Below are positions 5,215 to 12,522 of a DNA stretch of 64,000 nt, in pieces. Made by a program: the position numbers and the translations under genes. The DNA lies in assembly GCA_050302075.1 (NCBI GenBank), contig JBNLAH010000001.1:292157-356156 (forward strand), given 5' to 3'. The DNA is from Parachlamydiales bacterium (lineage in GTDB: Bacteria > Chlamydiota > Chlamydiia > Chlamydiales > SM23-39). Every line of letters starts with the position of its first letter. The stretch's first letter is position 1. The notes beneath the pieces were generated by a model. It was not told the DNA's origin, made no database searches, and saw only the letters and a program-made list of their open reading frames with translations.

Positions 5215-6564
5215 TTAAATTGCAAACATGTCGAGCCATAGAGGTTTTTTACTTGAGCTGAAAAATAGCAAACTTGACACTATCCCTACCACTCCATCTA
5301 AACAACCTGGATTATCTATCCACTTTTCTGGCTCATTCTTTTGAGATGCAAGTGTTTTGTAGCCAAAAGGATGCTCATCGCTATAAAGATTAACAATTAG
5401 TTCAGCTATATTGTGGCTTATCTCTAAAAACTTCTCATCTTTAGTATCTAAGAACATGGTATAATAAATTGTAAGAGCTCCAGAAAACCCATGGCAAAAC
5501 GAGGGACATTCCAACCCTGACTTACTTGGAAATCTTTCTATAGAACTTTTTAATACATCTAAACTGAATTTTTTAAGTTCTTGGTTTTTTGTAGCCATTG
5601 ATGCCAAAAAAAGAGATCTTGCAGTGCCAGTTGCTCCATAACACCAACCATCTCTGTACAATTCATCGAAATAGTCAAATTTTTTTTCTTTCTTTGAGGA
5701 AAAAACAAATCTTGATGGCCATATATTTTTTTCACTAAAAGATAATATATTTTCCTTTAGCCAATTAGAAATTTGAACAATAGCATCATTGCAGTTATAT
5801 CTAGATTCACTAAAAAGTGACGCTTTGCTTAAAGTACTTAAAATTCCACTAATTCCATGAGCTACTCCCGTATCAATACAACCATTTTTATATTTCATTT
5901 GATTATCTTTTCTTGTCAAAAGTTCACCAGGAGTAAAGAATGATGGTACTAGGGTTTTTTCAAAGTACATAGTCGATGATCCTAAACTGCTTAATCTATC
6001 AACTATGCTCGAACATATGCTATCAACAGTTGGGTTATCTATGAAATGAACTAAATAGGGGAGAACTCCAGAAAGTCCTGTTATTAAGTCCCAAAGCAAT
6101 GGAGGAACGAATTTACCATCTTGTATACACTGATCCCAAGGGTTTAAATATTCTTTTCTTACCTTATCAATCAAAATATTATTTAAATCTTTAATAAGGG
6201 ACTTGTAGCGAGTTTTGTTTTTTGATGCGCAAAGTATTGAAAAATTGATTCCTGTCAATCCTGAAAAAAGAGAGGTGTTATAAATTCCTTTTTCTTCAAT
6301 TAAGTTTATAAGTTGCTGGATCACAACATGCGATGCTTGGTCCCATCCTTGATTTGGAAATGAATTATCTAGAGTCGAAAATAATAAAATAATAGCAGGG
6401 TATCCATGGGATGTACTTAATGAGTCCCATGGATGTGCATTAATATAGGGAATAAAATTTTTATCTGAAAAACAAACTTTTTGTATTTTTTCAATATCTA
6501 AAAACTTATTTCCAATTTTTAATGCAATTTCGTTTATTTCTGAGGTCAGTGTTTTGTATTTCAT
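5215..6564 (-). CDS. lanC: Lanthionine synthetase/cyclase LanC (canonical)
   Basis: GVAHG, WCYG and FCHG catalytic/Zn motifs all intact; LanC GxxG repeats. Confidence 0.92.
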   Translation of the reverse strand: MKYKTLTSEINEIALKIGNKFLDIEKIQKVCFSDKNFIPYINAHPWDSLSTSHGYPAIILLFSTLDNSFPNQGWDQASHVVIQQLINLIEEKGIYNTSLFSGLTGINFSILCASKNKTRYKSLIKDLNNILIDKVRKEYLNPWDQCIQDGKFVPPLLWDLITGLSGVLPYLVHFIDNPTVDSICSSIVDRLSSLGSSTMYFEKTLVPSFFTPGELLTRKDNQMKYKNGCIDTGVAHGISGILSTLSKASLFSESRYNCNDAIVQISNWLKENILSFSEKNIWPSRFVFSSKKEKKFDYFDELYRDGWCYGATGTARSLFLASMATKNQELKKFSLDVLKSSIERFPSKSGLECPSFCHGFSGALTIYYTMFLDTKDEKFLEISHNIAELIVNLYSDEHPFGYKTLASQKNEPEKWIDNPGCLDGVVGIVSSLLFFSSSKKPLWLDMFAI

Positions 6565-7943
6565 TTAACCTTTTCTCCAATTATCTGTAGCCTATCTTTT
6601 GATGATTCATAGATATTTAATTTACCTCTTTGTTCTTTGAAAAAAATCATTGAAGGTGATGAGTTATAAAGTTGTTTTGTAAAAAAATAACCACGATCTG
6701 AGGGGTATAAAATTGTTGGAGGTTCATTTTTACAATACATTCTAAGGTGGTTTTCAGTAGCTTGAACAAACATAATGGTATTTTCTTCACCAAATAGCCG
6801 GTATTTTCCTTCAAGTTTTTTTAGGTTTTTAATAGGAATCTTTATTTGCTTATGCAAACGGTCTTTGGGGATATTTGGGTTAAGCCAACGATGTGCAGTT
6901 AGACCAAATGTATCACTATCAGCTAATAAGATAACCAAATATGAGGATTTTTTATCCCAACCAACAAAGGAACTGAATCCAAGAGTTCTACCGGTTAATA
7001 TATTAATTTCTCCCTTATATCGTTTATCCATAGACCATCCCATTCCGGACCTTATTCTAAATTTTTCTAAGCTGAATGGAGTTTTTTCTAATTTCCTTGC
7101 AAATTCCGAGTTCCTAAAATCAGAGAATGCGATGTAATTAAAATAAATTGATAAGTCATGAATGCTTGAAATGATAGAAGCAAAAGCTTTTAGGTATTTG
7201 ATATTCCAATAGGGAACCGGAACGCCTTGACTATTCCCTGTTACTTTTCTATTTGGGCAATTTTTTGGCATTTCTATGAAAGTTTCTTTCATATTCAGTG
7301 GCCTTAAAATATATTCCTGCAGTAGTTTTCCATAACTTTTGCCAGATACTTTTTCAAGTATTAAACCAATAAGTCCGTATCCTAAATTTGAATAAATTGG
7401 TTTTTCTACGTTAGCTGGTAATTTTTGAGTAGATAAAAATCTATCAATGTCAGACATGTCATAGTCTACAATAGGGACTGTATTTCCGCTTAACTTATTA
7501 TAGTAACTGTTCAGCTCAGGGTCTTTTAATCCTGTCGTATGAGTTAACAATTGATATAGACTCTTACGCTTTAAAGATTCATGAGCATTTGGAAAAACTT
7601 CTGTTATAAAAGGTTCTATTGATTGGCTAAGATTAATTTTCCCTTCTTCCTCAAGAAGTAAAGCGAGGTGGGCTGTAAAAAATTTGGTTATAGAACCAAT
7701 TTCATAAAGATCGTGAATAGTAGACTGGTTATTAATTGTTATATATGAGGTGCCTTCAGAAGTTAATATTGACGCGATTGGGTTTGTATTGTACTTAAGG
7801 TTTACTCTTTCTTCTAAGTCTATAAAAATATTTTCTTCTAAATTTCCCATCATCTCATTAGAAAATCCAATTAGTTTTGTTGAAATAATAAAAATCGGAC
7901 AAATAATTTTGCGCCTAAAATAGGATAAATAGTTTTTTTTCAC
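6561..7943 (-). CDS. Serine hydrolase, beta-lactamase/AmpC/PBP fold, with C-terminal extension
   Basis: GSITK (SxxK), LLTHTTG and YSNLGY (YxN); overlaps both neighbours by 4 bp. Confidence 0.85.
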   Translation of the reverse strand: MKKNYLSYFRRKIICPIFIISTKLIGFSNEMMGNLEENIFIDLEERVNLKYNTNPIASILTSEGTSYITINNQSTIHDLYEIGSITKFFTAHLALLLEEEGKINLSQSIEPFITEVFPNAHESLKRKSLYQLLTHTTGLKDPELNSYYNKLSGNTVPIVDYDMSDIDRFLSTQKLPANVEKPIYSNLGYGLIGLILEKVSGKSYGKLLQEYILRPLNMKETFIEMPKNCPNRKVTGNSQGVPVPYWNIKYLKAFASIISSIHDLSIYFNYIAFSDFRNSEFARKLEKTPFSLEKFRIRSGMGWSMDKRYKGEINILTGRTLGFSSFVGWDKKSSYLVILLADSDTFGLTAHRWLNPNIPKDRLHKQIKIPIKNLKKLEGKYRLFGEENTIMFVQATENHLRMYCKNEPPTILYPSDRGYFFTKQLYNSSPSMIFFKEQRGKLNIYESSKDRLQIIGEKVK

Positions 7944-12281: not shown

Positions 12282-12315
12282 AACCCATTTTAGTTTTTAA
12301 TTTTAATTACATAAA

Positions 12316-12522
12316 TTATTTACAAGAACAACAGAAACTATTGCCTGTGCCAGTATTTCCACATCCTGGAGTGCACAAAGATTTACTTGTTACAAGTTCT
12401 TTATTAGTTTCAACTGACCCTAGAGATTTAGAACTAAGCTTCAAATCAAAATCTGAATCAGCTTTTTCATTTACTTTATTAACAGCAAAACTTCTTTGTA
12501 AATTCTGAATATCTATTTTCAT
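12316..12522 (-). CDS. lanA: Class I lanthipeptide precursor (LanA), nisin/epidermin-like
   Basis: Leader with DFDL (FxLx box); putative core VTSKSLCTPGCGNTGTGNSFCCSCK; first gene of the lan operon. Confidence 0.95.
   Translation of the reverse strand: MKIDIQNLQRSFAVNKVNEKADSDFDLKLSSKSLGSVETNKELVTSKSLCTPGCGNTGTGNSFCCSCK

Follow-up and report, generated by a model that had tools for sequence, protein, structure and literature searches.

Class I lanthipeptide enzymology rests on LanB and a zinc-dependent LanC, and among the closest described relatives of the system considered here are the epidermin and gallidermin clusters of Staphylococcus, which carry epiA, B, C, D, P and others. Here we describe a class I lanthipeptide operon in a 64,000-nucleotide stretch of contig JBNLAH010000001.1 of a Parachlamydiales bacterium (below, "the window" is this whole stretch), in which a canonical LanC is accompanied by a LanC paralogue that has lost its zinc site (LanC*) and by a beta-lactamase-fold (S12) serine hydrolase. 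Lanthipeptide genes have been reported from this phylum before: a lanA-lanC-lanB cluster is described from Parachlamydia acanthamoebae Hall's coccus, for which acquisition from Firmicutes was suggested (Marsh et al. 2010, PMC3091789), and a lanthionine synthetase is mentioned for a dinoflagellate-infecting chlamydia (Maire et al. 2024, PMC11317633). Given these reports, and with 41 of the 401 Chlamydiota genomes sampled (30 of 212 genera) encoding a LanB, a chlamydial lanthipeptide cluster is not new, and the rarity implied by an earlier note on this DNA, made from its sequence alone, is not supported.

Two accessory components appear to be undescribed so far, a zinc-less LanC paralogue under selection and a cluster-specific S12 hydrolase. 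Our searches of the open-access literature (PMC and bioRxiv) turned up no account of a class I cluster with a zinc-less LanC paralogue, nor of a beta-lactamase-fold/S12 enzyme in lanthipeptide clusters. Clusters with two LanCs have been noted, one of them named in Frankia, and the accessible part of that account makes no comment on their ligands (Marsh et al. 2010, PMC3091789). The main text of a survey of chlamydial biosynthetic gene clusters does not contain the string 'lanthi', and its figures or supplements may list such clusters (Dharamshi 2022, PMC9666466).

A five-gene operon and its predicted product

The operon consists of five minus-strand open reading frames (ORFs) at positions 5215-12522, in the order lanA-lanC*-lanB-S12 hydrolase-lanC:

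12316-12522, minus strand: lanA, 68 aa; Gallidermin (PF02052) and NCBIfam TIGR03731
10974-12281, minus strand: lanC*, 435 aa; LANC_like (PF05147), 135 bits; zinc site lost
7940-10954, minus strand: lanB, 1004 aa; Lant_dehydr_N and Lant_dehydr_C
6561-7943, minus strand: S12 (beta-lactamase-fold) serine hydrolase, 460 aa, GTG start; Beta-lactamase (PF00144), 121.7 bits
5215-6564, minus strand: canonical lanC, 449 aa; LANC_like, 192.9 bits
12576-12604, minus strand: possible promoter 5' of lanA, TTGACA (12604-12599), 17-nt spacer, TAAAAG (12581-12576); weak, picked out by eye

Along the operon the genes are separated by gaps of 34 and 19 bp and then by two 4-bp overlaps, a spacing that fits a single operon, and a terminator scan of the operon found none between the genes. 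The promoter candidate was not listed by a consensus promoter scan, which returned no more sites than in shuffled sequence. Family assignments for all five proteins exceed the curated profile cut-offs. The ORF calls and translations reproduce the five co-oriented genes and the spacing given in the earlier note, and the profile scores likewise uphold its precursor, its full-length LanB and its two LanC-like genes; with LanA, LanB and LanC all matching their families, its designation of a class I lanthipeptide operon is borne out.

The precursor scores 32.2 bits against PF02052 (cut-off 21) and 33.4 bits against TIGR03731, 'gallidermin/nisin family lantibiotic' (cut-off 29.3). A leader of approximately residues 1-43, with an FDLKL box at residues 25-29, is followed by a 25-aa core, VTSKSLCTPGCGNTGTGNSFCCSCK, which holds eight Ser/Thr and five Cys. 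The core begins VTSKSLCTPGC, corresponding to the ring A/B motif S/T-x-S-x-x-C-T-P-G-C that is kept in Bacillota and chlamydial relatives. Homologous precursors are encoded at six other chlamydial loci (L007, L132 with two copies, L133, L137, L155 and L164) and in Bacillota (Bacillus, Marininema, Alteribacillus and Alkalicoccobacillus). Across an alignment of the window peptide with seven other chlamydial and four Bacillota precursors, T45, S46, C50, T51, S62, C64 and C65 are invariant, and the blocks T-S-x-S-x-C-T-P-G-C and N-S-[FY]-C-C are retained.

The C-terminus sets the window peptide apart. In most of the chlamydial relatives the precursor terminates in CC and is accompanied by a gene for a LanD flavoprotein; the peptides of the window and of L155 run on with [ST]-C-K. 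We found no match to the flavoprotein family PF02441 in the 96.2%-complete genome, and all 14 control genomes do match. Without a LanD in the genome, an aminovinyl-cysteine like that of epidermin cannot form at the C-terminus NSFCCSCK, which has one extra Cys instead. The predicted product thus lies outside the epidermin/gallidermin subtype, which is defined by a LanD-made C-terminal aminovinyl-cysteine: PF02441 is missing, and the CC pair of the core is followed by SCK.

TSxSxCTPGC-type N-terminal rings bind lipid II in nisin and gallidermin, by means of a pyrophosphate cage. In the maturation scheme that we propose, LanA would be bound through the leader that carries the FDLKL box, LanB would glutamylate and then eliminate Ser/Thr residues of the 25-aa core, and the zinc LanC would close the thioether rings, including the N-terminal rings S3-C7 and T8-C11 (core numbering). 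By analogy with epidermin, gallidermin and nisin, these two rings would form the lipid II pyrophosphate cage. Further rings T16-C21 and S19-C22 are plausible on the same analogy, with C24 in no ring of the map.

Compared with the epidermin/gallidermin clusters, the window operon shares the LanA family (PF02052/TIGR03731), a collinear core with xTSKSxCTPGC and ...NSFCC blocks, and separate LanB and LanC proteins. It differs from them not only in the absence of LanD and of the aminovinyl-cysteine and in a C-terminus longer by SCK, but also in having no S8-type LanP and no C39-type LanT match, with LanFEG and LanI unrecognised in the cluster; it adds the zinc-less LanC paralogue and the S12 hydrolase, and it belongs to a host-dependent chlamydia of Gram-negative type. 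Outside the chlamydiae, the nearest LanA, LanB and LanC are those of gallidermin-like clusters of Bacillota (L018, L019, L025, L026 and L043, from Bacillus nitratireducens, B. proteolyticus, Marininema, Alteribacillus and Alkalicoccobacillus). Shared with these are the FDLD leader box and the ITSxSxCTPGCG-TGSFNS[FY]CC cores; in contrast to the window, they have a single canonical LanC, leaders that end in P-Q or P-D rather than N-Q/E-L, and precursor genes that are often in tandem. The Parachlamydia cluster is likewise of class I and from the same phylum, with a LanB and a LanC proposed to be close to those of Firmicutes, but its LanA was grouped with Bacteroidetes-type precursors rather than epidermin-like ones, and the accessible portion of the account mentions no zinc-less second LanC or beta-lactamase-fold hydrolase (PMC3091789).

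The window LanB has matches to Lant_dehydr_N (PF04738; 329 bits, residues 44-656) and Lant_dehydr_C (PF14028; 151.6 bits, residues 729-981), and it matches PDB entry 9G04 over its full length (residues 4-988, E 1.8e-74) and also aligns with NisB (4WD9). In LanB proteins the N-terminal domain is that of glutamylation and the C-terminal domain that of elimination. In a FastTree phylogeny of ORFs of at least 850 aa (117 rows, 98 once identical sequences were removed), 45 chlamydial LanB rows form one clade (support 100) adjoining gallidermin-type Bacillota, the deeper forks being weak. Within it, the window LanB lies in a six-row clade (support 100) with L011, L017, L166, L031 and L167, and a zinc-less LanC is found in all six loci. 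In a 66-row LanC tree, the chlamydial-clade LanCs also form one group (95 in the Shimodaira-Hasegawa-like approximate likelihood-ratio test) within a group with Bacillota (100). The LanB and LanC phylogenies, which the earlier note had suggested as a check, thus each place the chlamydial proteins in one group next to or within Bacillota. The presence of the cluster in about one-tenth of the sampled genomes, together with one ancestral LanB, argues that environmental chlamydiae have long relied on antibiotic peptides in their way of life; such lantibiotics might act on competing bacteria or co-symbionts within the same host. The defensive symbiosis or within-host competition put forward in the earlier note is speculative.

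Two observations on other loci belong here. L013 (= G100:C2), from a record titled 'Verrucomicrobia bacterium', has a LanB and a LanC inside the chlamydial clades; the title is probably outdated, since the genome was drawn in the Chlamydiota sample. The LanB of L164 is broken by four stop codons.

The assembly that contains the window comprises 1.84 Mb in 89 contigs, with 33.5% G+C, and is 96.2% complete and 0.69% contaminated. The window sits within a 406-kb contig that also encodes an Hc1 histone-like gene and an NTT/TLC nucleotide transporter, the latter being one of four full-length NTT/TLC transporters in the genome. The assembly contains no 16S rRNA gene, and its taxonomy rests on markers and kinship; these two genes on the same contig and the kinship to chlamydial genomes support a chlamydial genome, as had been supposed. 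Base composition is even along the window. The locus is matched at about 88-96% identity by contigs of three groundwater-metagenome runs, which are coded as three studies but share year and habitat and may be one campaign; single contigs among them bridge the AstE-like gene, lanC and the S12 gene (4552-7440), lanC, the S12 gene and lanB (5975-8050), and lanC*, lanA and the upstream gene (11108-12906). Because the cluster and both of its junctions are thus reproduced in independent metagenome assemblies, an assembly chimera, which the earlier note had named as a possible refutation, is unlikely.

The locus is a genuine class I lantibiotic operon, and probably a functional one, and adds a new gallidermin-family member to a phylum in which such clusters were already known. 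We further consider it likely that the operon is intact and has been maintained vertically in this uncultured chlamydia, with a predicted product in the gallidermin/epidermin/nisin family. Several points weigh against this reading. No other full-length chlamydial LanB is as divergent as that of the window (331 bits, compared with 357-550 for the others), which has a terminal branch of 1.43 in the LanB tree, and the operon contains no recognisable transporter, exporter, regulator or immunity gene. Two co-oriented genes directly downstream of the operon were considered for missing functions:

2735-4051, co-oriented with and downstream of the operon: major facilitator superfamily (MFS) transporter
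4032-5045, co-oriented with and downstream of the operon: AstE/AspA-like deacylase

Both were set aside, the first as exporter and the second as trimming enzyme, as neither has a homologue in the 47 other loci (phmmer, E 1e-4); they do adjoin the operon in the approximately 90%-identical groundwater relative. In addition, the producer encodes MraY, and an L,D-transpeptidase lies in the window, so that it makes the presumed target, lipid II, itself. A gallidermin-type lipid II binder in a producer that has MraY and itself requires lipid II raises a testable question of self-protection.

The divergence of LanB and the absence of transporter, regulator and immunity genes would also fit an operon that is a silent or decaying remnant, or an artefact of assembly or binning, with no current function. 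We regard this as exceedingly improbable: the five frames are open and tightly coupled, the same gene order and both flanks recur in independent metagenome contigs, the metagenomic homologues of LanC* (at 94, 86, 54 and 36% identity) are all full length, a related gene pair is under purifying selection (see below), and the surrounding 406-kb contig carries chlamydial markers.

The zinc-less LanC paralogue

The canonical LanC of the operon has the expected residues His237 (in AHG), Cys308 (WCYG) and Cys357-His358 (CHG), and every motif lines up in its alignments to MadC (E 1.5e-60) and to NisC (E 9.6e-29); the roles of the CHG and WCYG motifs in LanC are given in PMC3091789, and those of the catalytic and zinc residues of NisC also in PMC10604976. 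In LanC*, full-length alignments to MadC (8BYK) and NisC (2G02) reveal replacement of all four of the corresponding residues: in NisC numbering, His212 is replaced by Tyr223, Cys284 by Phe293, Cys330 by Phe342 and His331 by Tyr343, with an Asn opposite Asp141 of NisC. The asterisk that the earlier note had placed on this copy is therefore justified, as the protein lacks the catalytic and zinc-binding residues. At the same time, an AlphaFold2 model of LanC* built from a 43-row alignment has a mean predicted local distance difference test score (pLDDT) of 91.9 and a predicted template modelling (TM) score of 0.93, and it superposes on MadC with a TM-score of 0.89 (root-mean-square deviation 2.7 Å), on NisC with 0.77 and on class III cyclase domains with approximately 0.6. 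Together with the lost residues, this superposition points to a class I cyclase fold that is intact but has lost its catalytic apparatus. A prediction of the complex of LanC* with LanA (score 0.01, mark 0.32) counts neither for nor against binding.

We surveyed 48 loci around chlamydial LanB genes in 40 genomes (the window, L007-L011, L067, L080 and L131-L170), calling a LanC zinc-less if at least two of its four catalytic residues were lost. The 56 LanC-like ORFs in these loci comprise 38 with the H/C/C/H set, 16 zinc-less copies and two fragments. The zinc-less copies, 16 of the 54 full-length ORFs, sit in 14 of the 48 loci and in 13 genomes. A canonical LanC accompanies them in 11 of the 14 loci; it is absent from L010 (genome G019), L166 (G121) and L167 (G291), and a genome-wide family search of these three genomes found no further LanC gene. 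The three (95-96% and 91% complete) encode LanB and LanD together with solely zinc-less LanC-like genes, whose residues at the four positions are H-S-C-Y in the single copy of L010, F-A-S-F and H-S-F-Y in L166, and Y-L-C-L and H-A-C-Y in L167; on this sequence evidence they are candidates for zinc-independent class I cyclisation. Among the LanCs found beside the best 80 LanB relatives from all prokaryotes (rows were kept at 350-560 aa and E < 1e-10, which removed ORFs that were fused, split or weak, for example at L033, L038, L041, L049, L076, L085, L086 and L089), 7 of 27 chlamydial-clade rows and none of 39 non-chlamydial rows are zinc-less. As a side observation, seven of the surveyed loci (L150, L152, L153, L154, L160, L162 and L164) have no LanC-like ORF in the 12-20 kb around LanB (phmmer, E 1e-4).

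In the 66-row tree, the zinc-less LanCs make up two or more separate clades (support 99 and 100), and the window LanC* groups with L011, L017 and L020. The residues that stand in for H212, C284, C330 and H331 vary between loci among the 16 zinc-less proteins, indicating that no new conserved site has arisen at those positions. When 13 LanC* proteins are aligned, most of the columns that do not vary hold Gly and a few hold Leu, Trp, Tyr, Ala or Ser; the four catalytic positions are not among them. Closer to the window, the Tyr or Phe at the His212, Cys284 and Cys330 positions (AYG/SYG, WFCG) is kept in the metagenomic homologues at 94, 86 and 54% identity; the 54% homologue retains His331 (FHG), and the 36% homologue is degenerate with other residues. 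The zinc-less copies are evolving under purifying selection. For the genome pair G020/G236, the ratio of nonsynonymous to synonymous substitution rates (dN/dS) is 0.18 for LanC*, 0.11 for the canonical LanC and 0.16 for LanB, values that are rough because dS is 1.4-2.0, near saturation.

With its fold intact and its catalytic residues gone, we tentatively read LanC* as a non-catalytic partner, a scaffold or chaperone, of the LanB/LanC/LanA machinery. A challenge to a purely non-catalytic protein comes from G019, G121 and G291, where LanB is accompanied by zinc-less LanC-like genes alone, and from class III cyclase domains, which function without zinc (PMC10604976). LanC* might instead be a zinc-independent cyclase or other tailoring catalyst, comparable to the cyclase domains of class III LanKC enzymes, acting on a subset of rings, for instance one with the extra C-terminal Cys. 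The class III enzyme ThurKC (PDB 8SAO) provides a parallel: it has a LanC-type fold without zinc ligands, with Ser, Phe and Asp in place of NisC C284, C330 and H331 (and thus shares with LanC* the Phe at the Cys330 position), and its domain is nevertheless needed for cyclisation as well as dehydration (PMC10604976). That each of the six loci in the LanB subclade of the window encodes one or more zinc-less LanCs, and that the dN/dS of LanC* is as low as that of the true enzymes, would also fit a catalyst. On the other hand, the four positions show neither conserved replacements nor an invariant column, most of the loci with a zinc-less copy (11 of 14) keep the canonical LanC alongside, and the fold is nearest to class I MadC and not to the class III domains; unlike LanKC, LanC* is a stand-alone protein in a LanB-type cluster that also has a canonical LanC. 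On balance, we consider a catalytic LanC* rather doubtful. A link between LanC* and the CCxCK tail of the precursor was examined separately and rejected, as L133 and L137 have a LanC* and precursors that end in CC.

A peptide-binding fold kept without catalysis, in a cluster with no recognisable immunity gene, could alternatively serve for immunity, LanC* sequestering the finished or leader-bearing peptide in the cytoplasm. The placement of the gene between lanA and lanB in a biosynthetic operon speaks against this, and the occurrence of LanC* partners follows certain clades of LanB and LanC, a pattern more in keeping with a biosynthetic complex; we consider a role in immunity quite improbable. 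Whether LanC* is the non-catalytic partner that we tentatively favour or a catalyst, the existence of a conserved zinc-less LanC that is sometimes the sole LanC would mean either that pseudo-cyclases are structural parts of the synthetase or that class I rings can be formed without zinc.

The S12 hydrolase and its possible role in leader removal

The fourth gene of the operon encodes a hydrolase whose best PDB matches are alkaline D-peptidase (4Y7P), Pab87 (2QMI), the S12 peptidase 3WWX, the R61 DD-peptidase, Flp and ClbP. Two of the motifs of the family, S84-I-T-K87 (Ser-x-x-Lys) and Y184-S-N186 (Tyr-x-Asn), are invariant as S-x-T-K and Y-S-N in four orthologues. The N-terminus is hydrophobic, with a hydropathy maximum of 2.10 at residue 13, and all four orthologues start with a hydrophobic segment. 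In common with S12 peptidases such as alkaline D-peptidase, R61 and ClbP, the protein thus has a beta-lactamase fold, Ser-x-x-Lys and Tyr-x-Asn, and predicted export; it differs from them in that the similarity amounts to only 29-69 bits and in having no ClbP-type C-terminal membrane domain, its C-terminal domain resembling that of Pab87 (2QMI).

Homologues of the hydrolase at E <= 1e-10 are found in 130 of 400 Chlamydiota genomes. Close homologues besides the window's own are restricted to three of the 400, the next best having E 4e-30:

Genome G201: E 2e-77, 38% identity; gene order LanC-LanD-LanB-LanC*-S12
Genome G262: E 4e-69, 36% identity; 2.4-kb contig, on which the gene is immediately preceded by the C-terminal part of a LanC-like ORF
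Genome G027: E 1e-49, 33% identity; gene order LanC-LanD-LanB-S12

All three adjoin LanB or LanC* within lanthipeptide clusters, the LanC-like ORF of G262 having Val-Asn where Cys-His is expected.

We found no Peptidase_S8 (PF00082) match, as expected of a LanP, in the 96.2%-complete genome, and no Peptidase_C39 match, as expected of LanT-type proteins, anywhere in it, which leaves the S12 hydrolase as the only candidate dedicated leader peptidase. The earlier note had stated that the cluster contains no export, protease or immunity genes. The first and last parts of this statement hold, since the cluster has no recognisable exporter or immunity gene, and no LanT, LanP or LanD family match was found genome-wide; its claim that a protease is lacking is open to doubt, because the serine hydrolase belongs to the S12 peptidase family and occurs in lanthipeptide clusters.

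For an S12 enzyme in a maturation role there is a precedent in ClbP, which removes the N-terminal pro-sequence from colibactin. We put forward, as a possibility and with some reserve, that the exported hydrolase substitutes for the missing LanP as leader peptidase. Three considerations count against this: at the position of the third motif (K/H-T/S-G) the aligned stretch reads G-x-[TS]-L-G-F-S, its first residue varying among R, T, K and G; the hydrolase is present in only three of the seven chlamydial gallidermin-like loci; and S12 enzymes are often D-stereospecific peptidases or esterases. In a different role, the hydrolase would be a self-protection or trimming enzyme that degrades or trims the peptide in the periplasm, after the model of nisin-resistance proteases, or that acts on peptidoglycan precursors. 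Its best matches are indeed D-stereospecific peptidases and DD-carboxypeptidases, the producer makes lipid-linked peptidoglycan precursors (MraY, and the L,D-transpeptidase in the window), the cluster has no LanI/LanFEG-type gene, and three of the four gallidermin-like chlamydial loci without the hydrolase have a very similar leader-core junction (N-Q/E-L followed by ITS). We nonetheless consider a self-protection or trimming role unlikely, given that no other family of dedicated leader proteases is represented in the genome (neither S8 nor C39), that the gene is translationally coupled to lanB and lanC through 4-bp overlaps, and that four of four members of the subfamily lie inside lanthipeptide clusters.

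The broadest picture that can be drawn from these genes is that of a chlamydial class I synthetase with an obligatory zinc-less LanC, acting as pseudoenzyme organiser or as metal-independent cyclase and replacing the zinc cyclase in G019, G121 and G291, and with a dedicated exported S12 peptidase that would mature a lipid II-binding lantibiotic of an obligate intracellular bacterium. As a whole, this composite must be regarded as speculative, and we doubt that every part of it will hold.

Neighbouring genes and other features of the window

The surroundings of the gallidermin-like clusters vary among chlamydiae. L132, L133, L137 and L155 are flanked by large AAA-domain proteins (605-958 aa), and the window cluster is without them. 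L132 also has four tandem LuxR-type genes, L155 has one such gene, and L137 has an ABC exporter, none of which occur in the window cluster.

Several other features of the window can be noted in passing:

165-2666: plasma-membrane-type proton P-type ATPase (TIGR01647, 987 bits; cut-off 615)
37486-39999: second plasma-membrane-type proton P-type ATPase (TIGR01647, 994 bits; same cut-off)
30834-31631: 265-aa protein with Mito_carr repeat, a eukaryote-like transporter
31698-32885: Cys/Met-metabolism pyridoxal phosphate-dependent enzyme
32896-33855: GntB-like L-arginine gamma-hydroxylase (NF041365, 372.5 bits, slightly below the cut-off of 380)
33852-34787: 311-aa ORF
35059-36375: basic amino acid/polyamine antiporter, divergent
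51140-52999: AAA_25 protein
53068-55077: PolA-type exonuclease/polymerase
55132-56865: 577-aa ankyrin-repeat protein
58586-59644: tyrosine recombinase
59943-60017: tRNA-Met

Plasma-membrane-type proton P-type ATPases, of which the window has two, are better known in eukaryotes and archaea. The adjacent genes at 31698-36375, from the Cys/Met-metabolism enzyme through the GntB-like protein and the 311-aa ORF to the antiporter, may together form a cassette devoted to a hydroxy- or cyclic-arginine metabolite. Finally, the region 51140-60017, which adjoins the tRNA-Met gene and contains the recombinase, the PolA-type protein, the AAA_25 protein and the ankyrin-repeat protein, is a possible integrated element.

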